Source: Gaiellaceae bacterium | Lineage (GTDB): Bacteria; Actinomycetota; Thermoleophilia; Gaiellales; Gaiellaceae | Reading direction: 5' to 3' | Assembly (NCBI GenBank): GCA_050697555.1 | Contig: JBOHAD010000002.1 | Span: 10,464-74,463 of the forward strand | Length of the DNA: 64,000 nucleotides | Part shown: positions 22,919-59,657 of the stretch, one piece after another | Layout: the number at the start of each line of letters is the position of its first letter | Position numbering within the stretch: the stretch's first letter is position 1 | Made by a program: the position numbers and the translations under genes | Notes under the pieces: model-generated | Seen by the model: only the letters and a program-made list of their open reading frames with translations | What the model was told of the DNA's origin: nothing | Database searches by the model: none

Positions 22919-22919
22919 C

Positions 22920-36004: not shown

Positions 36005-36859
36005 TCATACGGGGAAGACCTCCGCGAAGAAGTCGGCGAAGACGGCGAGGGCAAGAAGCCAGAGGCCGACTAGGACGAGGATGCGGCCGCCCCAGCGCTT
36101 CAGGGCGGGTGCGCTCTCCTCCAGCGTTCGGGCGACTCGGTCCTGGCCGGCCGCCAGCAGGAGGGCGAGCGTGAAGACGAGGAGGATCATCGTCAGGGCG
36201 GCGACGAGGAAGGCGAGGAACGCGGGTGCGAATCCGCCCATCGTGAGCGCTTGCCCGGCCAAACCGGCCAGGATCGGGCCCGTTCAGCCGAAGCCGGCGA
36301 GGATGTAGCCGAAGCCGAAGACGAAGTGGCCGGCAAGGGGTCGGCGGCGGCGAAAGCCCGCCTGCCGTCGGAGCAATCCATGCACCGCCGGCTCGAATCC
36401 TCTGAAGGAGATGCGAAGTCGGCCGAGCTGGACGAGCCCGAGGAGGATGAGGAGCGCGCCGACGAGAGCGCGGATGAGACGGCCGGTTGTGCTCGTGAAG
36501 GTCACGCCCTCGAAGAGTGCGGCCCCGGCGATCGCAATCAGCGTGCCCGTGAGGAGGAGGAAGGTGGCCGCTCCGAGCGCGAGCGCCGCCGCGAAGACGA
36601 AACCCGCGCGCCCGTCGCCGCCTCGCCCGCGAGGCGCGTGGGCGAGGATCGAGAGAAGGAGGGGGAAGGAGCAAGGCGAGAAGAAGGAGGCGATGCCCGC
36701 GCCGGCGGCTAACAGGAGGAGCCCGCCTCCCGTCCCTGCCGGCAGCTCGAAGCGGGGGTAGACGACATAGCCGAAGTAGCCGACGAGCGCGACGACAACG
36801 GTCGCGAGCGCGAGCAGCGCGTAGCGGGCCCGCGGATCAGCGAGAACCTTCTCGGTCAC
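36005..36859 (-). CDS. CcdA/DsbD-core family membrane protein with in-frame TGA (36284..36286) at the second redox Cys: candidate selenoprotein
   Basis: ORFs 36284..36859 and 36005..36262 share one frame and are separated by a single TGA. FFSPCSFP aligns with the first CcdA motif, and AGFG-TGA-TGPILAG aligns with GWTPCVGPTLAA of the paralog at 40491..41204. A hairpin follows the TGA. Confidence 0.6.
36254..36272 (-). other. candidate bacterial SECIS hairpin
   Basis: mRNA reads UGA-ACGGGCCCGAU-CCUGGCC-GGUUU-GGCCGGG: a 7-bp stem starting 11 nt after the UGA, with a 5-nt loop starting GG. Confidence 0.45.
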
Positions 36860-36962
36860 GCCGGCAACCGTAGAGATTGCCGTAGCGGGAAGGTCAGGCG
36901 GCTAGGGTTGACGGCATGGCGGCGGCCAAAGTTCGAGACGTCGGCCGCGGAGCCAGCGCCGC

Positions 36963-38111
36963 TCAGGCCACAAACGTCGGCGGCGCGAGCACCGGAACGG
37001 GACAGTTGACGGTAAACACGGTCCCTTTCGTGTCGGGCATGCCTGGGAACTCGTCGAGCTCGCCTCCGTCGCGGGCCGCGTGGATCTCCTTTTCGCTGGT
37101 CAAGAGACGGGCTTCGGCATCGTCCGCCCACCCATACGTGAAGTGGTCCCAGTAAGGACTCCATTCTGGCGCGCCGGCGTCGAAGTCGAAGACGGACGGC
37201 TGGAAGCCCATCGGTCCAGGCCCGGGGAGGCCGTTCATGAAGACGTTCGTGCGGCCCGTCGCGCCTGCTTCGCTCGGTCCGCCCTGCAAACCAGGCGAGA
37301 AGATCGTCTTCGTCATCGCCGCCGCCGGGGCGATCGAGTGCTCGGTGACGAAGTATCGGCTGCCCGGATAGCACTGACCGAGCTTGAAGGTGACGCGCAT
37401 TGCGCCGGTGTCCGGCGGCTCGAGAAGCGGCCCCTCGCCGAGATAGCCCTTGCGCTCTCGGTCGACAGCGAGCTCGCCGGTTGACCACTTGATAATTGCG
37501 GCGTTGAGGACGAATCCGCTGTCCTCGACCATGAGCGCGCCTGCGCGCTTGGCCTCTTGGATCTCTGCCACTGAAGCGAGCTCGCGTGGGCCGTTGCTCC
37601 AGCGCAAGTAATGGACACGCCAGGCCGGCGTGTAGGCCTCGCGCCCCGGCTCCGATGAGAAGATCGCGGGCCGGTCCGCGGCGACGCGATCCACGTAGAC
37701 AGCACCCGAAAGCTTCGGGGTCGCGAGAGCGGCCAGCTTCGGCACGAAGACGAGGCGCTCCGCGTCAGCGAAGCCCTCGTCCGAGACGTCCGTGCGGATG
37801 AAATAGACGTCGCTCCCGTCCACGCGCCCGCCATGGAGGCGCATCGTGACGAAGCCGAAGTCACCGTCCCATTCGTCGGATTCAAGCGAGAAGTCGACGA
37901 CGTCGCCGATGATGGGCCGGGCCCGCTCCGCCGCCTCCTCGAGTGTCGCCGTCCCGACGCCTGACTCACTAGGCGCCGCCTCGTCCCCGCTGCCGCCGCA
38001 GGCGGCCAGCAGGGTCGGGCCAAGCGTGCCGACGGCCACCACACCTGTGGCACGCCGGAGCAGCTCCCCCCGGTCGAGTCGAACTGTCGCAATCGATCCC
38101 TGAGGTTGCAC
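36963..38111 (-). CDS. Tat-signal lipoprotein of unknown function
   Basis: GTG 38111 is preceded by GAGGGGGG. Twin-arginine motif and lipobox (ELLRRATGVVAVGTLGPTLLAACGG). The conserved-looking C-terminus is WSPYWDHFTYGW...FTVNCPVPV. Confidence 0.7.
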   Translation of the reverse strand: MQPQGSIATVRLDRGELLRRATGVVAVGTLGPTLLAACGGSGDEAAPSESGVGTATLEEAAERARPIIGDVVDFSLESDEWDGDFGFVTMRLHGGRVDGSDVYFIRTDVSDEGFADAERLVFVPKLAALATPKLSGAVYVDRVAADRPAIFSSEPGREAYTPAWRVHYLRWSNGPRELASVAEIQEAKRAGALMVEDSGFVLNAAIIKWSTGELAVDRERKGYLGEGPLLEPPDTGAMRVTFKLGQCYPGSRYFVTEHSIAPAAAMTKTIFSPGLQGGPSEAGATGRTNVFMNGLPGPGPMGFQPSVFDFDAGAPEWSPYWDHFTYGWADDAEARLLTSEKEIHAARDGGELDEFPGMPDTKGTVFTVNCPVPVLAPPTFVA

Positions 38112-38249
38112 GTCTGCCCCCCTCGTTGGACTGCCGAACAAGTAGGTTGGATGCGAGCGGGCGACGAACGTCGCTGCGCCACGCGTCTCGGCGCCTCGTC
38201 GCACGAGCGAGCGCGTGGACGGAGAGCCCGGGCAGTTTCAATCGACCTT

Positions 38250-38414
38250 CCGGAGGGAGAGTTGGCCGTGCGGAGGAGCGAACCGGTCCTGTCGACGGAA
38301 TCGAGATGCGGTGGCTCGAGCGCGGTGCCGATCGTATTCGTGCGTGGGATTCCGACCTCGCCAGAGCTGTGGCGCCTGGTCTTGTCGCTCGTCCCCTCGT
38401 CTGTGGCGCGATGA
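38250..38414 (+). pseudogene. N-terminal relic of an alpha/beta hydrolase (haloalkane dehalogenase-like)
   Basis: DGIEMRWLERGA in one frame and PIVFVRGIPTSPELWRLV in another, followed by a stop. Confidence 0.35.
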
Positions 38415-38787
38415 TGCGGTCGGCGCTACGCGAAGGCGCGCAGCTCAGGCAAGGGGCCAACCGATCGAGGAGGAGTTGACGGCCGTCCACACGCAGGGTG
38501 CGAGCGTGCCGGAGATGAGCCGCTAAGGGCGGCCGCGGCCGTCACGACTGGGGGGCGCTGTGTGAGGTGCAGGCGACGGCGCGCTGCCCGGCGGCAGCGT
38601 CCGCTTTCGCGTCCGCGTAGTAGAAACGTGAGGAGCCCGGCGGCGAAGAGCATTCCTCGGTGAAACGGGCCTGCGCGCCCGCTCTCGGGTGGAGCCTTTC
38701 CGACTCCTTGCGAGTGACCCTAGTCTTGCCCACTCCCGACACGGACGGCATGCGGCGCCAGGGCGGCTGGGGGCATCCAACGGATGG

Positions 38788-39927
38788 ATGAGGCGCATCG
38801 TCGTGCTGGGCGGGTTGCTCGCGCTCGTCGCCATGGGCTGCGGTGGCGGCGATGAGGGCGGCGCGGGCGGGGGGCGGTCGAGCGGAGAGGCGAGTGACGA
38901 GCTTGCCGTCTCGACTCTCGGGTGGGAGACCGACTTCTCCAAGCACACGGTGCCCCTCTCAGAATTCATGAGCGGGGGACCGGGGAAGGACGGGATCCCG
39001 GCGGTCGACGAGCCGAAGTTCGTTTCGGTCGAGGAGGCAGGCGACTGGCTCGCCGCGCGGGAGCCGGTCATCGAGCTCGAGCTCGGCGGTGTCACCCGCG
39101 CGTATCCGCTCCAGATTCTCGTCTGGCACGAGATCGTGAACGACGAGGTTGCCGGTCGCCCTGTGGCGGTGACGTTCTGTCCCCTCTGCAACACGGCCAT
39201 CGTCTTCGACCGGCGTTTGGACGAACGGGTGCTCGACTTCGGCACGACAGGCAATCTGCGCCACTCGGACCTCGTCATGTACGACCGCCAAACCGAGAGC
39301 TGGTGGCAACAGTTTGGGGGCGAGGCCGTCGTGGGCGAGCTCGCCGGCGAGCGCCTGGAGCTGCTGCCCTCGCGGATCGTCGCCTGGGGGGACTTCGCCG
39401 GCCGCCATCCCGACGGGGAGGTTCTCTCCCGGGACACAAGCTTCGGCCGCGACTACGGCCGTAATCCCTACGCCGGCTACGACGACGTCGACTCGGGCCC
39501 CTTCTTCCCTGCGAAGGGAGCGGACGACGATCGACTCCTGCCGAAGGAACGCGTCGTGTTCATCGAGCTCGAAAACGAGGCCGTCGCGGTTCCGTTCTCT
39601 GTCCTGCGGAAGGAGCAGACGATGGAGGTGGAGGTCGGGGGAGAGCGGCTCGAGCTCCGCTGGGTGCCGGGGGTCGGTTCCGCGCTCGACTCGCCCGACA
39701 TCGGGGATGGGCGCGAGGTCGGCTCCGCGGAGGTGCGGTCGCTCGTGAGTGGCGAGCCGGTGCCGTTCGACCAGCCGTTCTGGTTCGCGGTTGCCTCCTT
39801 CCGCCCCGACATCCGGATCGTGGGAGCCGAGGCGGGGGCGAGCTCCTCCTCGTCCGCCCCAAAGGACACCGTCCCGGCCGCGCCAGCCTCTCCGCCGCGG
39901 CGCGGTTACCTGGCTCCTCAGGCGTAG
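38788..39927 (+). CDS. DUF3179 domain-containing lipoprotein
   Basis: Lipobox LVAMGCGG. GKDGIPAVDEPKF, ELGGVTRAYPLQILVWHEIVND, TFCPLCNTAIVFDR and GTTGNLRHSDLVMYDRQTESWWQQ are typical DUF3179 motifs. Confidence 0.85.
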   Translation: MRRIVVLGGLLALVAMGCGGGDEGGAGGGRSSGEASDELAVSTLGWETDFSKHTVPLSEFMSGGPGKDGIPAVDEPKFVSVEEAGDWLAAREPVIELELGGVTRAYPLQILVWHEIVNDEVAGRPVAVTFCPLCNTAIVFDRRLDERVLDFGTTGNLRHSDLVMYDRQTESWWQQFGGEAVVGELAGERLELLPSRIVAWGDFAGRHPDGEVLSRDTSFGRDYGRNPYAGYDDVDSGPFFPAKGADDDRLLPKERVVFIELENEAVAVPFSVLRKEQTMEVEVGGERLELRWVPGVGSALDSPDIGDGREVGSAEVRSLVSGEPVPFDQPFWFAVASFRPDIRIVGAEAGASSSSSAPKDTVPAAPASPPRRGYLAPQA

Positions 39928-39932
39928 CCGCG

Positions 39933-40475
39933 CTACTCCCAGGTGATCGAGCGTCGGACCCAGCTGAACTCGGCCGCGTGAGCGGTCTGGTTCTCGGCGG
40001 CGAAGATGATGATCGCCACTTCGCCGGAGTCGAGCTCGATTCCATAAACGCGCATGGTCGGGCCAAGCGGGTCGTCCTGGTTGGCCGCCCAGATGATCGA
40101 CGCCTCGACGCCGGGTCGGTCGCCGATGCGGGCGGTCTGCGTGTACACGAGCGTCGTTCCGTCACCCCGGGGAGGACGCAGGATGGCGGCGGCGAGCTCG
40201 GCAAACTCCGCATGGGATCTGTGCTTGCGCCGCGGGAGATACTGCACGCCGATGAAGGCCGCTGTTCGCTCCGTGTTGTCGTTCAGGAGCTCGCCGAAGC
40301 GGTCGGAGCGGCCTCGGCCCCAGTCGCTCGGGTATCGCAGCGTCAGCCGTCCATCCGCGTAGGTCTCGTCGATCCAGGAGGGGAAGTATTCCTCGACCGG
40401 TGGCGTGGAGGTCTGTTCGTTGCCGAGCGAGCAGCCCGCCCCGAGGAGAGCGAGGAGAACAAGAATCGTGGGCAC
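39933..40475 (-). CDS. lipoprotein of unknown function
   Basis: Lipobox LLGAGCS. 180 aa. Confidence 0.65.
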   Translation of the reverse strand: MPTILVLLALLGAGCSLGNEQTSTPPVEEYFPSWIDETYADGRLTLRYPSDWGRGRSDRFGELLNDNTERTAAFIGVQYLPRRKHRSHAEFAELAAAILRPPRGDGTTLVYTQTARIGDRPGVEASIIWAANQDDPLGPTMRVYGIELDSGEVAIIIFAAENQTAHAAEFSWVRRSITWE

Positions 40476-40490
40476 ATCCGGTTGGATGCG

Positions 40491-41204
40491 TCAGATCTGC
40501 CAACCGGTGTAGCGGGCGAGCCGTGTCGTCAGTCGGACGAGGTCGCCGCTGATGAGGAGCGCGCCGAAGGCGACGAGCACAGTGGCGGAGGCAACGCTGA
40601 CGGTGCGCCAGTGACTGCGCAGCCAGCGGACGAGCCCGAGCGAGCGCGTGAACGCGAGCCCGAAGAAGAGGAACGGCAGGCCGAGGCCGAGCGAGAAGGC
40701 GGCCAGGAGGACGGCACCCTCGGCCGCGCCTCCGCCTCCGGCTGAGAGCGTCAGGATCGCCGCCAGCGTCGGCCCGACGCAGGGCGTCCACCCGATCGCG
40801 AATGCGACTCCGGTGAGCCCGGAGGCAGCCATGCTTCCGCCGGGTCGGAGGCCGAGGCGGCGCTCGGTCGAGAGGAGCCGCGGAAGGGGGAGCCCGAGGA
40901 AGGTGACGGCGGCGACGATGATCAAGATCCCCGCGGCGATCTCGAGCGGGCGCCGGTTCTCGAGCAGGAAACTGCCGAACCAGGCGGCCCCGGCGCCGAA
41001 CGCGACGAACATGGCCGTGAATCCGCCGACGAAGGCCGCCGTAGACGTGGTGACCCGGCGCGGGCGGGCGCCGAGCTCGTCGAAGCCGACCCCCGAGACG
41101 AAGGAGAGATAGCCGGGCACGAGCGGGAGCACGCAAGGCGATGTGAAAGAGACGACGCCGGCGGCGAAGGCGAGCGCCAGCCCTGCGGGGCCGAGCTCGA
41201 TCAC
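40491..41204 (-). CDS. ccdA: cytochrome c biogenesis / thiol-disulfide transfer protein CcdA
   Basis: FTSPCVLPLVPGYL and IGWTPCVGPTLAAIL motifs, 6 TM. GTG 41204 overlaps the stop of the upstream reductase (GTGA). Confidence 0.88.
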   Translation of the reverse strand: MIELGPAGLALAFAAGVVSFTSPCVLPLVPGYLSFVSGVGFDELGARPRRVTTSTAAFVGGFTAMFVAFGAGAAWFGSFLLENRRPLEIAAGILIIVAAVTFLGLPLPRLLSTERRLGLRPGGSMAASGLTGVAFAIGWTPCVGPTLAAILTLSAGGGGAAEGAVLLAAFSLGLGLPFLFFGLAFTRSLGLVRWLRSHWRTVSVASATVLVAFGALLISGDLVRLTTRLARYTGWQI

Positions 41205-42565
41205 GTATCCGCAGCCGGGTCGAGCGGCAGGTCGCGGGCGGCAAAGAAGAGCGCCTCCGAGAAGGTGGGGAAGGGCTGGATTGTGCTTCGGAGGACGTCG
41301 ACGGGGACTTCCGCCTGGATCGCGAGCGTGACCTGGCCAATCCACTCGCCGGCCTCGGGGCCGACGGCGACCGCGCCGACCAGGATGCGACGCCCGGGAT
41401 CCGCGAAGAGCCTGACGAAGCCGGGCCGCTTCGGTCGCTCATAGGTCGAGGAGCGCGAGGTGGCGTTGACCTCCCAGCTCGCGGAGACGAGCCCCTCGCC
41501 GTCGGTGCGGCCGACCGAGGCGACCTGAGGGTCGGTGAAGGCTACAGCCGGAACCGCCCGGTAGTCGGCCCGGGCGTCGCCGCCGGCGACGTTCACCGCG
41601 GCCACCCGTGCCTGATACTTGCCCATGTGCGTGAAGAGCGCGATCCCGGTGACGTCCCCGATCGCCCACACGTTCTCCGCGGCCTGGAGGCGGTCGTCGA
41701 CCTCGATTCCGGTCCTACCGAGCCGCACGCCGACGTCCTTGAGACCGAGTCCGTCGACATTCGGACGCCGGCCGGTCGCGACGAGGAGCCGTTCCGCCTC
41801 GAGCAGCACGCCTCCGGGGAGGTGGAGGCGGAAGCCGTCCGACGTCCGCTCGACCGCCTCCGTGAGCGTGTTCAGGAGGATGTCGATTCCCTCCTCTTCG
41901 AGGGTGGCCTGGATGAGGCGACCCGCGTCGGGGTGGTCGCGGGGCAAGAGATGGTCGATGTCCTGGACGATCGTGACCCTCGTGCCTAGCCGTGCGAAGA
42001 ACCGGGCGAGCTCGCAGCCGACCACCCCGCCGCCGAGCACGACGAGGCTGCCCGGCAGCTCGCGAGTCGTCGTCGCCTCGCGGTTCGTCCAGTAGCCGCT
42101 GCCCTTGAGGCCGTCGATGGGGGGCGCGGAGGCCGAGGAGCCCGTCGCGACGACGAGCTTCTGGTACTCCACCTCGCGGTCTCCGACTTGGAGGGGGCCG
42201 GGGCGGACGACCCGTCCGGCGCCGCGGACGACTTCGACCTGTCGGTCGGCGAGCCAGGTCTCGTGGCTCGAGTCGTCGAGCTCGTCGGTAACGTGGTCCC
42301 GCCACCAGAGGACGCGCTCCCAGTCCGTCTCTCCGTTGACCGCCTCGGCCGCACCCGGGGCGCGGCGTGCCGCCGCGACGACTTCGAGCGGGCGCAGGAG
42401 CGTCTTCGAGGGCATGCACGCCCAGTAGGTGCACTCGCCCCCGAGGAGTTCTCTCTCGACGAGCGTGATCGGCACCTCGGCATCGAGGCGCCTGAGCGCC
42501 CCGCCGCACGCCTCGCCGGTCGAGCCGCCGCCGAGGACGACGACGCGTCCGCCCTCACCTGCCAT
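41201..42565 (-). CDS. class I pyridine nucleotide-disulfide oxidoreductase (LpdA/dihydrolipoyl dehydrogenase-like)
   Basis: VVVLGGGSTGE FAD motif. Redox pair GGECTYWACMPSK. NAD motif VVLGGGVVGCELA. C-terminal dimerisation domain. The ATG at 42565 is preceded by GGAGGGAG. Confidence 0.88.
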   Translation of the reverse strand: MAGEGGRVVVLGGGSTGEACGGALRRLDAEVPITLVERELLGGECTYWACMPSKTLLRPLEVVAAARRAPGAAEAVNGETDWERVLWWRDHVTDELDDSSHETWLADRQVEVVRGAGRVVRPGPLQVGDREVEYQKLVVATGSSASAPPIDGLKGSGYWTNREATTTRELPGSLVVLGGGVVGCELARFFARLGTRVTIVQDIDHLLPRDHPDAGRLIQATLEEEGIDILLNTLTEAVERTSDGFRLHLPGGVLLEAERLLVATGRRPNVDGLGLKDVGVRLGRTGIEVDDRLQAAENVWAIGDVTGIALFTHMGKYQARVAAVNVAGGDARADYRAVPAVAFTDPQVASVGRTDGEGLVSASWEVNATSRSSTYERPKRPGFVRLFADPGRRILVGAVAVGPEAGEWIGQVTLAIQAEVPVDVLRSTIQPFPTFSEALFFAARDLPLDPAADT

Positions 42566-42687
42566 TGATTCGCTCCCTCCGTTCGATCGTAGGATGCACT
42601 GCTCGTGTTCGATTCCCCGGGAGCGCCGAACGTTGCACGGCCACTCCTTGCGGCGCTCGACCGCCCGCGCGCATCTGAAGGAGAGCC

Positions 42688-44172: not shown

Positions 44173-45005
44173 CCGCAAGCCCGGAGGCGATCAAGGCCTG
44201 CTGCGCGACCGCCTACGCCTCGCCCGTCGCGCGCTGGCTCTTGGGCTCGAGCTTCCATCCCGGCGGGGTGGCGCTCACGCGGCGGCTGATCCGTTCCCTC
44301 GGCGTAGGTTCGGGCGACACGGTCGCGGACGTGGCATGCGGCCCGGGCGCGAGTTCAATGCAGCTTGCCCGCGAGGCGGGGTGTCGCGTCGTCGGGATCG
44401 ACCTCTCGTCCGAGTCCATCGAGTCGGCCCGGCGCGCAGCAGAAGAGACGGGGCTCGCCGCCTCGGTCAGCTTCGTGGTCGGGGACGCGGAGGCGCTTCC
44501 TCTCGAGGACGCGAGCGTCGACGGGGTCCTCTGCGAGTGCTCTCTCTGCACGTTCCCGGACAAGCGTTCGGCGGCCGCCGAGCTCTCCAGGGTCTTGAAG
44601 CCGGGCGGACGGCTCGCGCTCTCCGACATGACCGCCGATCCCGCGAAGCTGCCCGCGTCGCTGCGGACCCTCGAGGCCTGGATCGCCTGCCTGGCCGACG
44701 CGCGTCCGCTTCCTGCGCTCGTCGAGCTCCTCCGCGGCGCGGGGCTCGTCGTCGAGAGCGTGGAGCGCCACGACGACGCGCTCGCACGACTCCTCGACCG
44801 TGTCGAGGCGCGCCTTCGCCTCGCACGGGTCGCCCTCGCCCACGGCGGCGATCCCGCTCTCGTCGACCGCGGCCTTGAGCTCGTGGCGGTCGCGCGAGAG
44901 AGCCTCGAGCGCGGCTTCCTCGGCTACGCCGTCCTCGCCGCCCGCCGGCCGGCCGGCCGAGTCGAAGCGACCGCCAGGCCGGTCGGCGCATCGAACCTCG
45001 TGTGA
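44169..45005 (+). CDS. class I SAM-dependent methyltransferase, ArsM-like (CC motif)
   Basis: IKACCATAYASPVARWLLGSSFHPGG, VADVACGPGASS (motif I), VDGVLCECSLCTFPDK and LKPGGRLALSD. The GTG start overlaps the rSAM stop (GTGA). Confidence 0.8.
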   Translation: MTASPEAIKACCATAYASPVARWLLGSSFHPGGVALTRRLIRSLGVGSGDTVADVACGPGASSMQLAREAGCRVVGIDLSSESIESARRAAEETGLAASVSFVVGDAEALPLEDASVDGVLCECSLCTFPDKRSAAAELSRVLKPGGRLALSDMTADPAKLPASLRTLEAWIACLADARPLPALVELLRGAGLVVESVERHDDALARLLDRVEARLRLARVALAHGGDPALVDRGLELVAVARESLERGFLGYAVLAARRPAGRVEATARPVGASNLV

Positions 45006-45607
45006 GCGGCGAAGAACGTCCGCGAAACCGCCGCCCTCCCCTGCGGATCGGCCTCGCGGCGCTTGCGCTGGCTGCCCTTCTTGCCGTAGCGGTCTTCGCC
45101 GCTCTCGCCCTCCTCTCCGACGACGGAGCGCTCCGGGGGAGCCCGAGCCCCGGCTCCCCCGGCGCCTCCTCGGCGCAACCGGTCGCAGTGACGCCGGAGG
45201 AGGCGCCGACGCTGCTCGGGGAGGATCCGATCAGCGGGGAGGAGGTCACGCTCGCCGACTTCCGTGGGAAGCCGGTGGTGATCAACGTCTGGGCCTCCTG
45301 GTGCCCGGGCTGCAACGACGAGGCGGCCGACCTGCGCGAGTTCGCCGCCGACCACCCCGAGGTCGTGGTCCTGGGCGTCGACTTCCAGGACACCGTCGAG
45401 GGGGCGCGCCGCTTCTACCGGCGCTGGGAGTGGACGCACCCGAGCATCTTCGACTCGTCGGGAACGCAGAGCGCGGCGCTGGGGCTTTTCGGCATGCCGA
45501 CGACCCTGTTCCTCGACAGCCGGCACCGCATCGCCGCGCGCGTCGTGGGGGCCACCGACCGGGCCGGATTCGAGCACGGGCTCGAGCTCGCCACGCAGGC
45601 CTCGTAA
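45002..45607 (+). CDS. membrane-anchored TlpA/ResA-family thiol:disulfide oxidoreductase (CPGC)
   Basis: TM anchor, then FRGKPVVINVWASWCPGCNDEA. The GTG start overlaps the methyltransferase stop (GTGA). Confidence 0.88.
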   Translation: MSGEERPRNRRPPLRIGLAALALAALLAVAVFAALALLSDDGALRGSPSPGSPGASSAQPVAVTPEEAPTLLGEDPISGEEVTLADFRGKPVVINVWASWCPGCNDEAADLREFAADHPEVVVLGVDFQDTVEGARRFYRRWEWTHPSIFDSSGTQSAALGLFGMPTTLFLDSRHRIAARVVGATDRAGFEHGLELATQAS

Positions 45608-45692
45608 GAGAGGCCGGTGCTCCGTGCAACCGGGAGGGCGCGTGCGCATCGGACCGCGAAGGTAAGACAAACGACAGAGGGGGCAAGCTGCG

Positions 45693-46199
45693 ATGCAGTT
45701 CAACTGGTGGGAAGGCCTCGCAGCGGGCGCGGTCGCGACCGTGGCGATGACAGTCCTCATGCAGATGGGTGCGGCGATGGGCATGACGCGCATGAACATG
45801 GCCCTCATGCTCGGCTCTATGTTCCGCCGCGATCCCGAGTCTGCCAGGTCGGTAGGGATGACCCTCCACTTCATGAACGGCCTCGCGTTCGGCGTTCTCT
45901 ACGCACTCGTCTGGAGGGCGATCGATCCTGCCGATCTCGCCGACGCCTGGTGGATCGGTCTCATCTTCGGCGCCGTGCACGGGGTGGTCGCGATGGCCAT
46001 GATGCCGGTGATGAGCGCCATGCACCCGCGCGTCCGAAGCGACGCGCTGGCGGTCTCCGAAGGACCGGGGAGCGAGGTGCGGCTCCCCCCGTTCGGCTTC
46101 GGCGGCCGCGGCTTCGGTGCGATGACGCCGATGGGCATCCTGCTCGGCCACCTCGTGTTCGGCGTCGTCTGGGGGTTCGTTTTCTGGTGGCTCGCCTAG
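45693..46199 (+). CDS. integral membrane protein (4 TM, Met-rich)
   Basis: 168 aa, hydrophobic, Met/Gly-rich. Confidence 0.65.
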   Translation: MQFNWWEGLAAGAVATVAMTVLMQMGAAMGMTRMNMALMLGSMFRRDPESARSVGMTLHFMNGLAFGVLYALVWRAIDPADLADAWWIGLIFGAVHGVVAMAMMPVMSAMHPRVRSDALAVSEGPGSEVRLPPFGFGGRGFGAMTPMGILLGHLVFGVVWGFVFWWLA

Positions 46200-46219
46200 A
46201 CGGAAACACAACGGTCGCC

Positions 46220-46531
46220 GTGGAGCTGCTCTACTTCGAAGGCTGTCCACACTGGCGGCAGGCGGCCGCAGCAATTGCCGACGCTGCCCGGGTCACGGGG
46301 ATCAGGTCGGATGTCCGCGCGACCAGAGTCTCTGACCCAGAGGACGCCGTTCGCCATCATTTCCTCGGCTCGCCCACGGTGCGTGTCGCGGGTCGCGACG
46401 TCGACCCTGCGGCGCAGCAGCGTTCCGCGTACGCGCTCGCCTGCCGGGTCTACGACTCGGAGGCGGGACGAGCGTGGTCCCCTCCAGTCGGGTGGATCGC
46501 CGCCGCGCTTCACGAGGCCGCGGGCGCGTGA
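46220..46531 (+). CDS. small thioredoxin-fold-like protein (YFEGCPHW motif)
   Basis: VELLYFEGCPHW...HHFLGSPTVRVAGRDV resembles small thioredoxin-like proteins. GTG 46220 is the suggested start. Confidence 0.6.
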   Translation: MELLYFEGCPHWRQAAAAIADAARVTGIRSDVRATRVSDPEDAVRHHFLGSPTVRVAGRDVDPAAQQRSAYALACRVYDSEAGRAWSPPVGWIAAALHEAAGA

Positions 46532-47031
46532 GCCCGCCTCTCCTCGCCCGGTGGCCGCCGCTGGCACCTCTTCTCTACGGGCTCCTCCTGGCAGGAATGG
46601 CGGCGGGTCAGGTCGCCAGCCTCGACACCTTCGAGGACGCGCTGGCGTCCTACGAGCTCCTGGGCGGACTGCTTCCCGCCGCCGTGATCGGTCTGCCGGC
46701 GCTGGAGGTGCTTGCCGCCCTGGGGCTGCTCGGGTCCCGCCTGCTGCCTCGGCGTGCCGCCCGCGCGGCCGGAGTGCTCGGCATTGTCGTCGCCGTCGCC
46801 TGGTCGGTCCTCGCCGTCCAGGCGTTCGCGCGCGGGCTCGCGGTCGAGAACTGCGGCTGCTTCGGCGCCTATCTGGCTCAGGAGCTCCGCTGGTGGGTGC
46901 TGCTCGAGGACGCCTACCAGCTGCTGCTCGCTCTCCTGGCGGCGCGCGCGCTCGACGTTCGCCTCCTCGGAAGAGGCCGGGTGCCGGTCTCCGCGTTGGG
47001 CGAGGCCCCGCCGGAGCCTGCCCGGCGATGA
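46528..47031 (+). CDS. MauE/DoxX-family redox-associated membrane protein
   Basis: 4 TM plus the ENCGCFG motif. The GTG start overlaps the previous stop (GTGA). Confidence 0.8.
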   Translation: MSPPLLARWPPLAPLLYGLLLAGMAAGQVASLDTFEDALASYELLGGLLPAAVIGLPALEVLAALGLLGSRLLPRRAARAAGVLGIVVAVAWSVLAVQAFARGLAVENCGCFGAYLAQELRWWVLLEDAYQLLLALLAARALDVRLLGRGRVPVSALGEAPPEPARR

Positions 47032-47684
47032 CCCGGCTCGCCGTGTTTGCGGCAGTGGCGGCCGTGGCGCTCATCGTTCCCGCCCCGGGCGCCGCAGGCA
47101 CCGAGCGCTGCTGCTTCCTCGTCGATGCGCGGGCTTCCGGGCGCCTGTCGCTGACGGCCGGAACCGATCTCGCGGCACCGGGTGCGAGTGCCTATCGCGC
47201 TCGCTGGCGCTGGAGGGTGCGGCACGTCGTCCGCTACGTCGAGCACGGCCGGATCTTCAACGCCCTCACGACATTCGGATCGTTGCGGCAGCGCGAGCTC
47301 TCGATCCGGCTCTCGGAGGAGCGAGCCGGCCTGCGCGTCCCAACCTGCCGGCGCGAAGTCAGCCGGGACCTCGCGAGAGGGAGCAGGGAGGCGTACGTCT
47401 CCTTGGAGGACACGACCGAGGGCGACATAGCGCTCGTGGTTCGCGCCAATCATCAGGCGCTTCGGTCGCGCTGCAGCCCCGCGCTCGCGCTGCCGACGGC
47501 ACACATCGGCCCGGCGCCCGCGGGCGTCCTCCTGCGACAGGCACGCACGCTCTCACTCGCCTGGCGAGATCCGATCCGTCTCGAAGACGGTCGTCTCGTC
47601 GGGTCGGTCGAGGTTAATGTGCGCCTGTCGGTGGTTTCGCCGACGCGCGTCGCCGCCGCATTTCACCACGGCCGGCGCCCGTGA
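47028..47684 (+). CDS. secreted hypothetical protein
   Basis: The ATG overlaps the MauE stop (ATGA). Signal peptide AVFAAVAAVALIVPAPGAAG. Contains a CC pair. Confidence 0.6.
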   Translation: MTRLAVFAAVAAVALIVPAPGAAGTERCCFLVDARASGRLSLTAGTDLAAPGASAYRARWRWRVRHVVRYVEHGRIFNALTTFGSLRQRELSIRLSEERAGLRVPTCRREVSRDLARGSREAYVSLEDTTEGDIALVVRANHQALRSRCSPALALPTAHIGPAPAGVLLRQARTLSLAWRDPIRLEDGRLVGSVEVNVRLSVVSPTRVAAAFHHGRRP

Positions 47685-47701
47685 TCTGCCGCGGAGTCGC
47701 C

Positions 47702-47974
47702 TCAGCCTGCGTCGTCCCGGCCCTCGTCCCGCACGCGCCCAAGGACCCGAGAGGTAAAGTCAGGATCGGGAGGCGGCTCTTCGCGGCCGAGGCCTCGGAG
47801 GGACTCGAGCGTCGCGAGAAACGAGCGGTAGAGGGCCTGGCACTTCTCGCACCGCGCCAGATGACGAGCGACCCGCCAGCGGCGGTAACCGGTGAGCTCG
47901 CCCTCGGCGTATTCCGAAATGGAGCGGGCGGTCTCCCCGTGCGACCCGTTGATGGCGAAGAGGAGGATGCTCAC
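47702..47974 (-). CDS. zf-HC2 anti-sigma factor-like protein
   Basis: YAEGELTGYRRWRVARHLARCEKCQALY contains the H-x3-C-x2-C motif. GTG 47974 is suggested, because the longer ORF would overlap the sigma gene start. Confidence 0.6.
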   Translation of the reverse strand: MSILLFAINGSHGETARSISEYAEGELTGYRRWRVARHLARCEKCQALYRSFLATLESLRGLGREEPPPDPDFTSRVLGRVRDEGRDDAG

Positions 47975-48043
47975 GGTCTCTTGGATGCGGCGGCCGCCGG
48001 GCCCGTCGCAGGCTAGCGGAACAAGGCTGCTAGCGTCCTCCCG

Positions 48044-48631
48044 ATGCCGCATCCGGAAGCCGCGCTGCTCCTGCGGGCACAGGAAGGCGACCTCGACGCC
48101 TTCGCCGAGTTCGTCCGCGTGTTCGAGCGTCGCGTCCGAGGGGTGCTCGCGCGCCTCCTCGATGACGAGCGCGACATCGAGGAGGCGGCGCAGGACACGT
48201 TCGTGCAAGCGTGGCGGCATCTCGATCGCTTCCGCGGCGAGGCCGCCCCCTTCACCTGGCTCTACCGGATCGCTGTCAACGAGGCACTGCAGCGAAACCG
48301 ACGGCGGCGCCTGGACACGCAGCCGCTCGAGCAAGCGGCCGATCTCGAGACTCGCGTCAGTCCCGAGTCGACTGCCGGGCGGCCGCTGCCGGCGGACGTC
48401 GCGGCCGGGCAGCGTGAGGAGATCGCAGTCTTGCTCGCCGAGTTGCGCGCGCTTCCCTTTGAGTCACGCGCGCCCCTCGTCCTCCACGACGTCGAGGGAT
48501 GGCCGTACGAGGACGTCGCCGCCGTGCTGGATATCTCAGTCTCCGCCGCCAAGAGCCGCGTGCACCGGGCGCGGCTCCAGGTGATCCGAGCCCTCACCGG
48601 CCTGGGACCGGGAGGGGGGCTCACGGGTTGA
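48044..48631 (+). CDS. ECF (sigma-70 family) RNA polymerase sigma factor
   Basis: Region 2 (DIEEAAQDTFVQAWRHLDRFRGEAAPFTWLYRIAVNEAL) and region 4 (LVLHDVEGWPYEDVAAVLDISVSAAKSRVHRAR). Confidence 0.9.
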   Translation: MPHPEAALLLRAQEGDLDAFAEFVRVFERRVRGVLARLLDDERDIEEAAQDTFVQAWRHLDRFRGEAAPFTWLYRIAVNEALQRNRRRRLDTQPLEQAADLETRVSPESTAGRPLPADVAAGQREEIAVLLAELRALPFESRAPLVLHDVEGWPYEDVAAVLDISVSAAKSRVHRARLQVIRALTGLGPGGGLTG

Positions 48632-48721
48632 CCTTCGGCGCAGCGAAGCCGGGCCGCCGGTCATCGAACCGGGCGATGCGATCCGCGCCGGACGAGGCGA
48701 GACCGACTGTCGACAACTTCG

Positions 48722-49282
48722 GTGACCGGTCGTAGGTTCGCATCCGTTCTGGCCCTCGGCGCGTCGGCGGCTGGACTCTACGGCCTCCTTGTTCGTGGAG
48801 CGCTGACGGTCGATATCCAGATCGGCAGGAGCGTGCGCCCGCTCGGACCCTTCACCGTCCGGATCGACGCATCTCGCGAGGTCGTCTTCGACGTGATCTC
48901 GGCGCCCTATCTGCGCCGGACCCCACGGGCGCTCGAGGGGAAGCTCGAGGTCGTCGAACGGGGAACTGACATGGTGCTAGCCGCGCACTTCACGGACGTC
49001 GGTCGCCTCGTCGCGACTACGCTCGAGACCGTCCGCTTCGACCCGCCGAGCGAGATCCATTTCCGTCTCGTTCGCGGCCCCGTGCCGTACGTGGTCGAGA
49101 GCTTCGTCCTGAGCGAGGCCGGCCCCGGGACGGTGCTCGAGTATGCCGGCGAGCTCGGCACGGACCTGTGGTCGCTCGGCCGGTGGTGGGGGGGCCGGGT
49201 CGCCCCGCGGTGGGAGGCGGCGGTCGAGAGCTCACTCGCTGACGTGAAGACGGAGGCCGAGCGACGGGCCCCCCGGAGGTAA
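48722..49282 (+). CDS. SRPBCC (START/polyketide cyclase-like) family protein with N-terminal TM
   Basis: 186 aa. VVFDVISAPYL...EIHFRLVRGPVPYVVESFVL...GTVLEYAGELG. Confidence 0.7.
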   Translation: MTGRRFASVLALGASAAGLYGLLVRGALTVDIQIGRSVRPLGPFTVRIDASREVVFDVISAPYLRRTPRALEGKLEVVERGTDMVLAAHFTDVGRLVATTLETVRFDPPSEIHFRLVRGPVPYVVESFVLSEAGPGTVLEYAGELGTDLWSLGRWWGGRVAPRWEAAVESSLADVKTEAERRAPRR

Positions 49283-49333
49283 GCACTGGCGGCCGCACAT
49301 CCGTTCATAAGCAGGAAAGATCCTTCGGCTACG

Positions 49334-49849
49334 GTGAACCGGATGCTGCGTCTCGGAGCCCTCGCCGTCGCACTCGCCGCGCTCGCCGCGTGCGGCGGGA
49401 ACAGCTCGGGCGGCGCCGACGCGGCTGGTAGCGCGGCAACCAGCTCCCCAGCAGCCTCGACCGTCGCGCTCGAGGGCGAGACGCTCGACGGCGACCGCCT
49501 CTCACTTGCCGACCTCCGCGGGAAGCCGGTCTTCGTCAACGTCTGGGCCTCCTGGTGACCCATCTGCAACGGCGAGGCGGTCGCCTACGCGCGCTTTGCG
49601 GAGAGCCACCCGGAGTACGGGTTCGTCGGCCTGAATATCTCCGACGACCGAGACGACGCCAAGGGATTCCTGCACAAGTACGGCTGGACGTGGCCCTCGC
49701 TCGCCGACCCGGGCGCCGAGCTCGCCGGCTCCCTCGGACTCTACGGACACCCCGCCGTCGCCGTCCTCGACGAGCGCGGCGCCGTAATCGCCCGCCACAT
49801 CGGCGGCGGTGACGCCACAATCTGGGAGGCGCTCGCAGACGAGCTCTAG
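49334..49849 (+). CDS. TlpA-family thiol:disulfide oxidoreductase lipoprotein with in-frame TGA (49556..49558) at the first Cys of CxxC: candidate selenoprotein (UPIC)
   Basis: Lipobox LAACGG. LRGKPVFVNVWASW-TGA-PICNGEA aligns residue for residue with FRGKPVVINVWASWCPGCNDEA of 45002..45607. The frame stays open and homologous to TAG 49847..49849 (YGWTWPS, GLYGHPAVAVLDERG). Confidence 0.65.
49571..49585 (+). other. candidate bacterial SECIS hairpin
   Basis: GGCGA-GGCGG-UCGCC starts 12 nt after the UGA. The loop starts GG. The stem is short (5 bp). Confidence 0.35.
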
Positions 49850-59596: not shown

Positions 59597-59657
59597 GCCT
59601 CTGGAACGCGTCGTAGGACTGAGTCGAATGTATCTGTTTGCAGGAAGATTCGAGAGA

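Follow-up and report, generated by a model that had tools for sequence, protein, structure and literature searches.

The known electron donor to CcdA is thioredoxin, and to our knowledge no class I flavoprotein disulfide reductase (FDR) reduces CcdA directly. Carbon-arsenic bonds are formed by the radical SAM (rSAM) enzyme ArsL together with the methyltransferase (MTase) ArsM, and an extra cysteine motif in ArsL binds As(III). DUF3179 proteins are listed as a selenoprotein family of the UxxC/T type. Proteins of these several kinds are encoded side by side within a 64,000-nucleotide window (the whole stretch of DNA that was analysed) from a Gaiellaceae bacterium.

The window contains a 24-kb integrative mobilizable element (35,581-59,702), and positions 36005-49849 form the main part of its cargo. 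The attL repeat (repeat family D2) is 100% identical to positions 59656-59702 in a repeat search, and a third, degenerate copy is located at 30297-30343. The att repeats in tRNA-Arg, the integrase and the TrwC relaxase are the basis on which the cargo, described as horizontally transferable in a first-pass annotation, is upheld as such. Other island genes are unrelated to the thiol-redox cargo (QueF-like, deoxyribosyltransferase and ATP-grasp proteins). The host of the element is a soil actinobacterium.

GC3-based gene calling, translation, and scans against Pfam and NCBIfam recovered the gene set collected in Table 1, where (U) and (C) denote the selenocysteine (Sec) candidate and the cysteine form of a protein. 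All genes (17/17) that the first-pass annotation had placed in a dense 14-kb set were found where it had put them, with minor corrections, and its description of the cargo as rich in exported thiol-redox proteins is borne out by the recovered genes. Two operons are held together by overlapping stop and start codons: rSAM, MTase and TlpA(C) are joined by two GTGA overlaps (42688-45607), and the DF protein, MauE and a secreted protein by GTGA and then ATGA (46220-47684).

Table 1. Features of the element and its cargo (window coordinates)
Feature	Position	Strand	Basis or remark
attL	35581..35627	.	47-nt direct repeat identical to 3′ part of tRNA-Arg(TCG)
CcdA(U), DsbD/CcdA-superfamily membrane selenoprotein candidate	36005..36859	-	translation, hhalign
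MerR-type operator/promoter upstream of CcdA(U)	36867..36896	-	predicted from dyad match
DUF7482 Tat-signal lipoprotein	36963..38108	-	Pfam PF24298, 210.8 bits; mature part with 2 Cys
DUF3179 lipoprotein, CPLC motif	38788..39927	+	Pfam PF11376, 327 bits
180-aa lipoprotein, no family	39933..40475	-	translation, Pfam/NCBIfam scans
CcdA(C), classical two-Cys CcdA	40491..41204	-	Pfam DsbD_TM, 55.6 bits
Class I FDR, MerA-like	41201..42565	-	Pfam Pyr_redox_2/dim; CTYWAC
Tes/TrsS-like rSAM enzyme, N-terminal Zn ribbon	42688..44172	+	Pfam Radical_SAM, Zn_ribbon_HMPTM
Cys-rich ArsM-like (DVU_1556-type) SAM MTase	44169..45005	+	NCBIfam
TlpA(C), membrane-anchored TlpA/ResA-type thioredoxin, WCPGC	45002..45607	+	Pfam AhpC-TSA/Redoxin
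Met-rich DUF6789 membrane protein	45693..46199	+	Pfam PF20587, 27.8 bits (cut-off 27.1)
DF family (seleno)protein, Cys form (CPHW)	46220..46531	+	NCBIfam NF049942, 98.3 bits (cut-off 70)
MauE-like membrane protein, invariant CGC	46528..47031	+	Pfam MauE, 45.2 bits; GTGA overlap with DF
Secreted 218-aa protein, 4 Cys, no family	47028..47684	+	gene call, Pfam/NCBIfam scans
zf-HC2 (ZAS-type) anti-sigma, about 90 aa	47702..47974	-	Pfam zf-HC2, 32.4 bits; start chosen
ECF sigma factor	48044..48631	+	Pfam Sigma70_r2/r4_2; divergent from anti-sigma
SRPBCC (START-like) protein, membrane-anchored	48722..49282	+	Pfam Polyketide_cyc2, 32.6 bits
TlpA(U), lipoprotein TlpA/Redoxin selenoprotein candidate	49334..49849	+	translation, Pfam scan
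135-aa His-rich domain run together with frameshifted HAD-like hydrolase	50011..51100	+	
TrwC-type relaxase	54302..56287	+	Pfam TrwC, 278 bits
Tyrosine integrase	58406..59530	+	Pfam Phage_integrase, 74.5 bits
tRNA-Arg(TCG)	59656..59730	-	ARAGORN and Rfam; 3′ 47 nt (59656-59702) = attR

The organising core of the gene set is the rSAM-MTase pair, not a reductase-CcdA-TlpA series. Of 83 related loci (rSAM identity 62-93%), 82 have the two genes side by side; the loci come from Gaiellales, Acidimicrobiia, Chloroflexota, Streptomyces and Pseudonocardia. Neither protein reaches the curated cut-off of any named family: the rSAM enzyme reaches 346 bits for TrsS (cut-off 490) and 321 bits for Tes (cut-off 450) in NCBIfam, and the MTase 149.3 bits for the DVU_1556 family (cut-off 155) and 104 bits for arsenite MTase. 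The rSAM enzyme matches GDGT-MAS (PDB 7tol) over its full length at 268 bits, with all cluster cysteines kept. Its 19 invariant cysteines include extra PVPCC and CESC motifs, and four extra invariant cysteines are missing from Tes. In the MTase, C11, C12, C124, C127 and C174 are invariant in 77-78 of 78 homologues; the invariant residues lie at CC, CxCxxC and WIAC positions, and the protein retains the cysteines that ArsM/AS3MT uses for trivalent arsenic binding. A second MTase in one related locus (L002; loci are cited by number) has a TGA aligned to the WIAC cysteine, giving 'G*IAGA', which is the UxxG motif of ArsM selenoproteins.

The neighbourhood of the pair was compared across genomes, and a large part of the gene set is found linked in other genomes too. 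Of FDR, DUF3179, TlpA, MauE and CcdA, one or more lie close to the pair in 14 of 18 Gaiellales-like, 22 of 28 actinomycete (Streptomyces-type) and 2 of 31 Acidimicrobiia-type loci. In two distant clades, the Gaiellales-like and the Streptomyces-type loci, the recurring families are the MerA-like flavoprotein, DUF3179, TlpA, MauE, CcdA and SRPBCC, together with regulators of the ECF/anti-sigma or MerR kind. Of 26 control proteins taken from other parts of the window, 25 match 0-1 rSAM loci out of 83, against up to 82 for proteins of the cluster. Compact operons are formed by SRPBCC-MauE-rSAM-MTase-DUF3179 (L087), by TlpA-CcdA-DUF3179 (L011), and by DUF3179-rSAM-MTase-TlpA-MauE, the last with SRPBCC and a divergent anti-sigma/sigma pair (L002). 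SRPBCC homologues (58-77% identity) occur in 13 loci. The lipoproteins and secreted protein recur less: a DUF7482 homologue is present in one of the 83 rSAM loci, where it adjoins rSAM (L060), and L007 is the single one with a homologue of the 218-aa protein and, among related loci, holds the sole homologue of the 180-aa lipoprotein.

The first-pass annotation had read two in-frame TGA codons as putative Sec codons, and their position, the reading frame, SECIS-like hairpins and the stops in homologues all behave accordingly; judged on these features, both codons very likely encode selenocysteine. The TGA of CcdA(U) (36284-36286) falls exactly at the second redox cysteine ('AGFG*TGPIL'), next to a SECIS-like hairpin at about 36253-36272 that is 95% paired with one compensatory pair. 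Of the 120 best cluster representatives among its homologues, 108 end at the same 'GFG', and the TGA and downstream frame are kept in L086, L087, L088, L094 and L095. The TGA of TlpA(U) (49556-49558; U-P-I-C, 'WASW*PICNGEA') is accompanied by a SECIS-like hairpin with a GGUC loop (49563-49602). The same TGA is present in an orthologue from L089 (63% identity), and immediately after it the two DNA sequences are almost the same, including an unbroken run of 28 matching bases.

CcdA(U) is not detected directly by Pfam DsbD_TM and has no pairwise similarity to CcdA(C) outside an SPC motif; its homology to CcdA is recognised because of a profile-profile match with the CcdA(C) family (hhalign 97.3%, E 1.8e-11), in which U is aligned with the second cysteine. 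The proposal that CcdA(U) is a Sec upgrade of CcdA(C) does not hold. It belongs instead to a separate branch, distinguished by an additional N-terminal helix. About 90% of this branch contains TGA, and its members are often fused to an HMA metal-binding domain (present in 10 of 10 N-terminally extended representatives tested) and MerR-controlled. The branch was found in no selenoprotein list and in no NCBIfam model. In L086 and L087 a merR gene and dyad operator adjoin CcdA(U); the operator is retained in the window (TGACCTTCCCGCTACGGCAATCTCTACGGT, matching the merR-ccdA(U) intergenic dyads of both loci), and there is no MerR gene within the window.

There are two CcdA-superfamily and two TlpA proteins (the latter 41% identical to each other), and their pairing runs crosswise: in L089 a CcdA(C) orthologue (77% identical) is divergent to the TlpA(U) orthologue, and in L002 TlpA(C) is directly followed by MauE. 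The MauE CxC is kept in 12 of 12 homologues. In DUF3179 the first cysteine of the motif is invariant, and the second position is occupied by C in 10 homologues and by T in 6.

The FDR overlaps CcdA(C) by GTGA. It scores 328 bits against NCBIfam MerA, under the cut-off of 454, and in the PDB it is matched best by the core of MerA, at 228 bits. Unlike MerA, it has neither an NmerA domain nor a C-terminal CC, and ends in 'FPTFSE'. Homologues are present in 29 of the 83 rSAM loci. The coupling to CcdA(C) is confined to the window and its copy (L001), being absent from all other loci with CcdA(C) (for example L007); outside these two, the FDR adjoins rSAM or a CC-motif membrane protein.

The anti-sigma has no transmembrane segment. 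Its divergent layout with the ECF sigma is the same in L002 and L007, and orthologues of the sigma factor (55-90% identity) are found in 12 Gaiellales-like loci. The cargo had been presented as one self-contained module; its families do recur together, but it is served by no fewer than two regulatory circuits, one of the ECF/ZAS kind and one with a MerR-type promoter.

The island has no ars or mer structural genes. In about 8 Acidimicrobiia loci, with differing gene orders, the pair abuts PiT, ArsR, ArsI/CadI (199 bits, cut-off 116), aquaglyceroporin and ArsC. In L060 it lies beside merR and a canonical merA (HMA domain, C-terminal CC), and Streptomyces-type loci contain a heavy-metal MerR, the MerA-like FDR, and also a membrane protein whose 'ACCAP' motif resembles that of MerT. 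A secreted protein client had been put forward as one candidate substrate; the ars and mer genes of related loci point instead to soft metal(loid) handling. Since resistance genes tend to collect on mobile islands, this adjacency may be due to co-selection and not to a common pathway.

A self-contained relay had been proposed, in which electrons pass from NAD(P)H through the flavoprotein and CcdA to TlpA, with one copy of each component possibly upgraded to Sec, and keep a secreted client reduced (candidates being DUF7482, the 218-aa protein or the rSAM/MTase product). The GTGA coupling of FDR and CcdA(C) is real, two CcdA-superfamily and two TlpA proteins are at hand, the cargo has exported proteins with Cys pairs, and TlpA-CcdA neighbours recur (also in L011, L060, L084 and L085). 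The coupling is specific to this island, however, and direct reduction of CcdA by a class I FDR rather than thioredoxin would be without known precedent; with CcdA(U) in a different subfamily, the would-be clients DUF7482 and secreted protein recurring in one locus each, and rSAM and MTase as the invariant partners, such a relay is improbable. A similarly low likelihood attaches to envelope lipid remodelling, in which the rSAM enzyme would couple or functionalise lipid tails as archaeal Tes does, the MTase would add methyl branches, SRPBCC and a CDP-alcohol phosphatidyltransferase would handle the lipid, and the thiol-redox genes would be a separate, co-travelling, ECF-controlled envelope-stress set. 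Given the full-length similarity to GDGT-MAS with its cluster cysteines, the Tes score, and lipid-related neighbours that include SRPBCC, CDP-OH_P_transf (10 loci) and Lgt (7 loci), a lipid role fits the pair equally well, and bacterial Tes homologues are suspected brGDGT genes. Yet five to six invariant MTase cysteines at the arsenic-binding positions of ArsM are hard to explain in a lipid C-methylase, and the four additional rSAM cysteines, the ArsR, MerR, ars and mer contexts, and the tight operons with DUF3179, MauE and TlpA also speak against it.

A chance mosaic, in which a mobile element has gathered unrelated cargo genes that share no function, is less probable again. CcdA(U) also stands alone (L095), as does the CcdA(C)-TlpA(U) pair in a housekeeping-like context (L089), and the multiple regulatory circuits and unrelated island genes would agree with it; against this, these families reappear beside the pair, in changed gene orders and overlapping-stop operons, in clades with no more than 35-50% identity between orthologues, and control genes show no such recurrence. 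The least probable reading is that the island carries a duplicate of a classical CcdA-TlpA/ResA pathway, which supplies reductant for the maturation of cytochrome c or copper centres: CcdA(C) and the TlpA proteins match DsbD_TM, DsbE, ResA and TlpA models, but all TlpA and DsbE scores are below NCBIfam equivalog cut-offs, and the island and the related loci examined lack genes for ccsBA/resBC, cytochrome c, Sco and cox.

We give about an even chance to the reading that the cargo is a composite, transferable module for a thiophilic metal(loid), built of conserved sub-modules and not one linear relay, in which SAM-dependent reactions in the cytoplasm are combined with a thiol/selenol network of the envelope. 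Gene layout, Sec codons, mobility genes, the invariant rSAM-MTase pair and its recurrent linkage belong to what is shown; what we infer of the direction of electron flow, the substrate and the chemistry is as follows. The substrate would be a toxic metal or metalloid of the kind represented by As, Hg, Se or Te; it would be bound and held in reduced form by exported Cys/Sec proteins, pass through Cys/Sec membrane proteins, and undergo reduction and alkylation or methylation in the cytoplasm. The first sub-module would be the cytoplasmic Tes-family rSAM enzyme translationally coupled to the MTase. In the second, CcdA(C) may pass reducing equivalents to TlpA(U) and TlpA(C), with MauE as a putative partner of TlpA(C) and the DF protein; DUF3179, which shares operons with TlpA-CcdA and with rSAM-MTase, is probably the terminal thiol oxidoreductase or a metal(loid)-binding protein of this envelope network. 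The MerA-like flavoprotein would form a third. CcdA(U), the fourth, probably passes the soft metal(loid) through the membrane, or else the reducing power that it requires, and the ECF sigma, cytoplasmic zinc anti-sigma and SRPBCC protein may constitute a thiol-stress switch, the fifth.

The gene set probably extends to about 51.1 kb, taking in the His-rich domain and HAD hydrolase. This is the sole control ORF with matches in 8 of the 83 rSAM loci, and after frame repair the hydrolase scores 74.8 bits against Pfam Hydrolase.

The cargo of the island is a modular unit, and its constant core is a pair of adjacent genes encoding a radical SAM (rSAM) protein and a methyltransferase (MTase). A scan of 185,579 species genomes for the rSAM protein returned 80 loci (62-93% identity), and these scan loci, together with contigs from exact-protein look-ups, make up 83 independent loci at which gene presence was counted within the fetched flanks. 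The MTase is present at 82 of the 83 loci, followed by the class I flavoprotein disulfide reductase (FDR) at 29, the DUF3179 lipoprotein at 17, TlpA at 15-17, MauE at 14, the ECF sigma factor and the SRPBCC protein at 13 each, the zf-HC2 anti-sigma factor at 11, the DF protein at six, CcdA(C) at five and DUF6789 at two; the DUF7482 Tat-lipoprotein, the secreted protein and the 180-aa lipoprotein were each counted once. The first-pass annotation had held that homologues occurring only scattered and unlinked in other genomes would count against its gene set. This is not the pattern seen, since the families recur near the rSAM-MTase pair in tight operons and, of 26 proteins encoded elsewhere in the window and taken as controls, 25 match 0-1 loci. 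The remaining control, an ORF 3′ of TlpA(U), recurs near rSAM at 8 of the 83 loci; homologues of its HAD-like part lie directly 5′ of rSAM in loci L074 and L082 (L001 to L095 designate related loci from other genomes or contigs, L001 being a copy of the island itself), and in L007 the ECF sigma and SRPBCC genes flank a homologue of its His-rich domain.

Gene orders vary between loci, and the recurring tight operons include DUF3179-rSAM-MTase-TlpA-MauE followed by a divergent anti-sigma/sigma pair and SRPBCC (L002), SRPBCC-MauE-rSAM-MTase-DUF3179 (L087) and TlpA-CcdA-DUF3179 (L011). The order in Streptomyces is MerR-DUF427-CDP-alcohol phosphatidyltransferase-SRPBCC-[FDR-CC-membrane protein]-DUF3179-MauE-rSAM-MTase...TlpA-CcdA. 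When a redox set is scored as present wherever at least one of FDR, DUF3179, TlpA, MauE and CcdA is found at the locus, it accompanies the pair at 14/18 Gaiellales-like loci, 22/28 loci of actinomycetes (Streptomyces, Pseudonocardia, Actinomadura and others), 2/31 loci of the Acidimicrobiia type and 1/6 loci of Chloroflexota/Dormibacterota.

The region is identical to NCBI contig JBOHAN010000074.1 (assembly GCA_050697835.1), the nearest relatives of its genes are found in Gaiellaceae/Gaiellales MAGs, and the G+C content of the window is about 70%. Since direct att repeats at a tRNA gene enclose a tyrosine integrase and a relaxase, the genes described here form the principal cargo of an integrative, mobilizable element of 24 kb, which justifies the term island used in the first-pass annotation. 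No type IV secretion genes were seen in the element, so the evidence extends to mobilization but not to self-transmission; as the whole set is carried on the element, the set is able to spread as a unit. All genes previously listed were recovered by GC3-based gene calling, translation and Pfam/NCBIfam scans, as were the 4-nt overlaps at FDR/CcdA(C), DF/MauE and MauE/secreted protein, and similar 4-nt overlaps join rSAM to MTase and MTase to TlpA(C).

Positions of features in the window and at related loci
Feature	Sequence	Positions	Strand	Remarks
att direct repeat, 47 nt	window	35581-35627 and 59656-59702		100% identity; matches 3′ part of tRNA-Arg(TCG)
Degenerate third att copy	window	30297-30343		91% identical
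CcdA(U)	window	36005-36859	-	TGA (putative Sec) form
Dyad operator/promoter	window	36867-36896		MerR-type; upstream of CcdA(U)
Gap between divergent DUF7482 and DUF3179 genes	window	38109-38787		680 nt; no raised-GC3 frame or hidden TGA-split gene; non-coding or decayed
CcdA(C)	window	40491-41204	-	Cys form
FDR	window	41201-42565	-	CTYWAC
rSAM	window	42688-44172
MTase	window	44169-45005
TlpA(C)	window	45002-45607	+	Cys form
DF/MauE overlap	window	46528-46531
Anti-sigma factor	window	47702-47974		divergent from sigma gene
TlpA(U)	window	49334-49849	+	TGA (putative Sec) form
ORF 3′ of TlpA(U)	window	49936-51162		135-aa His-rich domain fused in reading with HAD-like hydrolase; frameshifted near 50780
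TrwC relaxase	window	54302-56287		between repeats; Pfam 278 bits
Tyrosine integrase	window	58406-59530		between repeats; Pfam Phage_integrase 74.5 bits
Possible nucleoside or DNA-modification module	window	51406-53146		within the island
Apparent older tandem insertion	window	30297-35627		bounded by third att copy
Trypsin_2+CHAT protein	window	31092-32945
TPR protein	window	32952-35507
Low-GC stretch	window	19000-22920		GC 0.59 vs ~0.70
PEP mutase family gene	window	5940-6800		232 bits; outside the island
Second ArsM-like MTase	L002	5621-6235		upstream of DUF3179
FDR homologue	L013	821-2152		in-frame stop
Membrane protein with MerT-like helix	L081	7345-8253
CcdA(C) and TlpA(U) orthologues	L089	5199-6501		divergent pair

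The rSAM protein belongs to the radical SAM superfamily (PF04055, 74.6 bits vs 29.5; CNLDCPIC invariant in 84/84 homologues) and aligns over its full length with the tetraether synthase GDGT-MAS (PDB 7tol; 268 bits), with all cluster Cys kept; the Zn ribbon, the rSAM cluster and two auxiliary Cys clusters are common to both. The island protein differs in being bacterial, in scoring under the Tes cut-off (321 bits vs 450), in possessing four additional invariant Cys, located in PVPCC and CESC and absent from the archaeal enzyme, and in having an obligatory Cys-rich MTase partner. Its other best NCBIfam match is TrsS (NF045646), at 346 bits again under the cut-off (490), and the adjacent MTase best matches the DVU_1556 family (NF045667) at 149.3 bits, marginally under the cut-off of 155; both island proteins are Cys forms, which likewise sets them apart from the TrsS and DVU_1556 pair. 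Haft and Tolstoy, in 2025, reportedly defined TrsS, Tso and DVU_1556, arriving at Tes-related rSAM and ArsM-like MTase families via selenoprotein neighbourhoods. A split rSAM gene in L086 was considered as a Sec case and rejected, as the split is caused by frameshifts.

Against the arsenite methyltransferase model PRK11873 the MTase reaches 104 bits, far below the cut-off of 263. Five of its Cys, located in CC, CxCxxC (C124/C127) and WIAC (C174), recur in 77-78 of the 78 homologues, and C174 aligns with the Sec of the second, ArsM-type MTase in L002, where a TGA occupies the putative As-binding Cys position ('LWTG*IAGA') and 'G*IAGA' matches UxxG, the ArsM selenoprotein motif. We take C124 and C174 to correspond to the As(III)-binding C156 and C206 of AS3MT ('SNCVINL...PDK' and 'WGECLGGA'), a putative correspondence that serves as a lead. 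There is precedent in the arsenic systems, where the rSAM protein ArsL acts with ArsM to form C-As bonds and As(III) is bound by an additional Cys motif of ArsL. The island pair resembles such organoarsenical pairs (ArsL/ArsM for arsinothricin, ArsS/ArsM for arsenosugars) in that an rSAM with extra Cys motifs adjoins an MTase with candidate As(III)-binding Cys, and in its position beside ars operons in Acidimicrobiia. It differs in that the rSAM is Tes-like and belongs to neither the ArsL (RCCLKC-tail) nor the ArsS (TIGR04167) type, and in the low ArsM scores of the MTase.

The genomic context of the pair points to soft metal(loid)s. At about eight Acidimicrobiia loci it is flanked, in differing orders, by a PiT phosphate transporter, ArsR, an ArsI/CadI enzyme (199 bits vs 116), an aquaglyceroporin and an LMW-PTP ArsC. 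L060 holds SRPBCC, DUF7482, rSAM, MTase, DUF3179, CcdA, TlpA and DUF6789, and this set adjoins merR and a canonical merA, whose product bears an HMA domain and the tail 'LSCCAA'. Streptomyces-type loci encode a MerR of heavy-metal type, which scores ~95-109 bits with the CadR, ZntR, MerR and CueR models, along with a membrane protein whose 'GVACCAPTVL' helix is MerT-like; in L067, L079, L081 and L085 the membrane protein with the MerT-like 'GVACCAPTVLIALGAG' helix is located between the MerA-like FDR and DUF3179, and it matches no Pfam or NCBIfam family.

The island FDR most resembles the MerA core (4k8d, 228 bits) and retains the redox CxxxxC, yet it scores 328 bits against a cut-off of 454 for NCBIfam MerA, ends in '...FPTFSEALFFAARDLPLDPAADT' without CC, carries no HMA/NmerA domain and is devoid of the His of the HPT motif. 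In L013 an FDR homologue is interrupted by an in-frame stop at the first redox Cys ('GGT*ITRGC') and is possibly a selenoprotein form of the MerA-like flavoprotein. CcdA(C) is a DsbD_TM protein (PF02683, 55.6 bits vs 27.1) with both Cys invariant in 5/5 homologues. DUF3179 (PF11376, 327 bits) is a CxxC lipoprotein with CPLC, of which the first Cys is invariant and the second is Cys or Thr among homologues, and the family includes Sec forms. Structure prediction, recommended for the lipoproteins in the first-pass annotation, gave for DUF3179 an AlphaFold2 model with an all-beta core (pLDDT 71.7) that had no significant match among PDB folds (best E 0.09, weak Rieske/NirD-like) and hence yielded no functional clue; PDB sequence searches with DUF3179 and DUF7482 found nothing.

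The DF protein is a Cys form (CPHW) of the DF family (seleno)proteins (NF049942, 98.3 bits vs a cut-off of 70), and MauE (PF07291, 45.2 bits vs 27) has a CGC conserved in 12/12 homologues. As in MauD-MauE of methylamine dehydrogenase maturation, a TlpA-like thioredoxin is directly followed by a MauE with CxC in L002 and L008-L010; unlike that system there are no mau genes, and in the island DF and DUF6789 intervene between TlpA(C) and MauE. The ECF sigma factor (Sigma70 r2 and r4) and the adjacent ZAS anti-sigma factor, a zf-HC2 protein with 'HLARCEKC', keep their divergent layout in L002 and L007. The pair is similar to SigR-RsrA-type thiol-stress switches in joining an ECF sigma to a small soluble zf-HC2 anti-sigma, and differs from them in its divergent transcription and in the SRPBCC gene that is always downstream. 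Two candidate regulatory sequences were rejected, namely an ECF promoter motif GCAAC-N-TCGRAC that was not above chance (1 match vs 0.47 expected), and a conserved sequence 5′ of the sigma gene that looks like a leaderless -10 element rather than a regulon motif.

Selenocysteine is indicated at two places in the island. TlpA(U) has W-U-P-I-C where its paralogue TlpA(C), 41% identical, has WCPGC. The sole orthologue found (63% identity, in the metagenomic locus L089) has TGA at the same position, and the DNA just 3′ of the TGA, nearly identical between them, includes an unbroken run of 28 matching bases and a GGUC-loop hairpin; a UGA at the CxxC site, its conservation in an orthologue and a SECIS-like hairpin after it are thus all present, and UxxC selenoproteins of the Redoxin/TlpA type are a known kind. 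No tRNA-Sec was found within the 64-kb window. The L089 orthologue is divergently paired with an orthologue of CcdA(C) (77%) in a housekeeping-like context (ClpS, a CsoR-like repressor and HisIE) that includes no rSAM.

For CcdA(U) a full-length query returned 314 homologues; among the best 120 cluster representatives, 108 stop exactly at '(A/G)GFG', and the site holds Cys in six and Trp in one. The same codon is TGA in the DNA of five further loci, where the frame is conserved to a common C-terminus. A hairpin 14-33 nt past the UGA, CCUGG(C/U)C-GGU(U/C)U-G(G/A)CCGGG, is 95% paired over six sequences with one compensatory change (C:G to U:A), and its single-sequence folding z-score does not reach significance in DNA this rich in GC. 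CcdA(U) matches no Pfam or NCBIfam family and falls short of the PF02683 gathering score, its pairwise similarity to CcdA(C) is confined to the SPC motif, and profile-profile comparison (hhalign) relates it to the CcdA family at 97.3% (E 1.8e-11), with its U opposite the second redox Cys. As this homology is visible at the profile level only, CcdA(U) represents a distinct branch of the CcdA/DsbD_TM superfamily, with 230 representatives at 50% identity and an active-site TGA in ~90% of close members. NCBI records annotate truncated 'CcdA' proteins for the family, and a CcdA/PF02683 entry is absent from the three sources compared, a 2026 selenoprotein review, the BSepDB paper and the deep-Sep paper (Haft and Tolstoy 2025 lying outside this comparison). 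The family therefore looks uncurated in this respect, and CcdA(U) likely typifies a large membrane selenoprotein family not yet curated as such. An HMA domain scores above the Pfam cut-off in 10/10 N-terminally extended representatives tested. In L086 and L087 a merR gene precedes CcdA(U), as does a dyad operator placed between -35 and -10; the same operator is kept in the window, within which no MerR gene occurs anywhere. Traced through its own homologues, CcdA(U) is separated from the rSAM cluster by 1-3 kb in these two of the five further loci and stands alone in the others.

The island combines features of systems already known, namely CcdA/TlpA pathways, mer-like logic and rSAM+ArsM pairs. 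With CcdA-TlpA/ResA/Etrx systems of the DsbD superfamily it shares a two-Cys CcdA beside exported CxxC proteins of the TlpA/Redoxin fold, an adjacency that recurs in L011, L060, L084, L085 and L089. It differs in that cytochrome c, Msr or Sco client genes are missing, one TlpA is UxxC, DUF3179, MauE and DF are extra partners, and CcdA(C) is coupled to a MerA-like flavoprotein with no visible reliance on thioredoxin. With the mer operon (MerR-MerP-MerT-MerA) it shares a regulator or operator of the heavy-metal MerR type, an exported CxxC protein, a MerA-like flavoprotein and membrane proteins in which Cys are paired (here Cys with probable Sec), HMA-fused in some cases, and in L060 a canonical merR-merA stands beside the set. 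Here the differences are the flavoprotein without NmerA and C-terminal CC, the missing MerR gene, the lack of MerP, MerT and MerB homologues, and a membrane protein that has the CcdA fold.

We place moderate confidence in the view that the island is a transferable module for a thiophilic metal(loid); the anatomy, mobility genes, invariant pair and recurrent linkage are shown, as very probably are the Sec codons. In such a module CcdA(C) would reduce TlpA(U), as the divergent neighbours in L089 suggest, and MauE would be the partner of TlpA(C) and DF, like MauE with MauD. DUF3179 might act as the terminal exported reductase or as a binding protein, and CcdA(U), with its many HMA-bearing relatives, may relay metal(loid) or reducing power over the membrane. 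The MerA-like flavoprotein would reduce the metal(loid) or a disulfide carrier, the rSAM-MTase pair could alkylate or methylate a thiol-bound metalloid, and the soluble ZAS anti-sigma would free the ECF sigma upon thiol-reactive stress. Against this view, ars and mer structural genes are missing from the island, its flavoprotein departs from MerA, and resistance genes that share islands can reflect mere co-selection.

A role of the rSAM-MTase pair in lipid chemistry is a serious rival, albeit an unlikely one, to which the Tes homology of the rSAM and the presence of SRPBCC, CDP-alcohol phosphatidyltransferase and Lgt among the neighbours lend support. The linear relay from NAD(P)H reductase through CcdA to TlpA, as proposed in the first-pass annotation, we likewise judge doubtful: its main support is the FDR-CcdA(C) overlap, and this overlap does not recur. 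What survives of that interpretation is the recurring gene set on a mobile island, with the rSAM-MTase pair as its core in place of the relay. That these genes are a chance mosaic is quite improbable given their recurrent operons, and cytochrome c maturation, which the CcdA-TlpA likeness might bring to mind, was rejected as the main role for want of ccs, res or cytochrome genes and is very unlikely indeed.

Within the metal(loid) reading, a more speculative version, which we consider rather unlikely, is that the Tes-like rSAM and its ArsM-like partner constitute a new organo-metal(loid) route, in which a terminal lipid or alkyl carbon would be joined to a thiol-bound metalloid that is then methylated, served by a dedicated Cys/Sec envelope relay including CcdA(U). 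Such a route would be a bacterial source of arsenolipid-type compounds, and the presence of the pair in cultivable Streptomyces makes the idea directly testable. Cultured strains with the pair include S. swartbergensis HMC13, Kitasatospora hibisci HNM1077 and Streptomyces sp. NBC_01092. The pair is conserved (to the same 62-93% identity from Gaiellales to Streptomyces), experimentally tractable and repeatedly found in ars, mer or thiol-redox neighbourhoods; it bears on the role of bacterial Tes homologues, which are widely assumed to be brGDGT genes, and on the origin of lipid-soluble organo-metalloids. The CcdA(U) family, for its part, is tied to HMA domains and MerR regulators, and the phylum concerned is not one known for its selenoproteins.

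Several neighbouring features stand apart from this gene set. An ATP-grasp protein, a nucleoside 2-deoxyribosyltransferase and a QueF-like protein within the island may form a separate nucleoside or DNA-modification module. To the left of the island, a 120-aa ORF and the Trypsin_2+CHAT and TPR proteins occupy what looks like an older tandem insertion; a PADLOC scan of the Trypsin-CHAT/TPR genes gave weak protease matches only. The low-GC stretch, beside tRNA-Arg(TCT) and tRNA-His, may be another insertion site, and the PEP mutase family gene hints at phosphonate metabolism.
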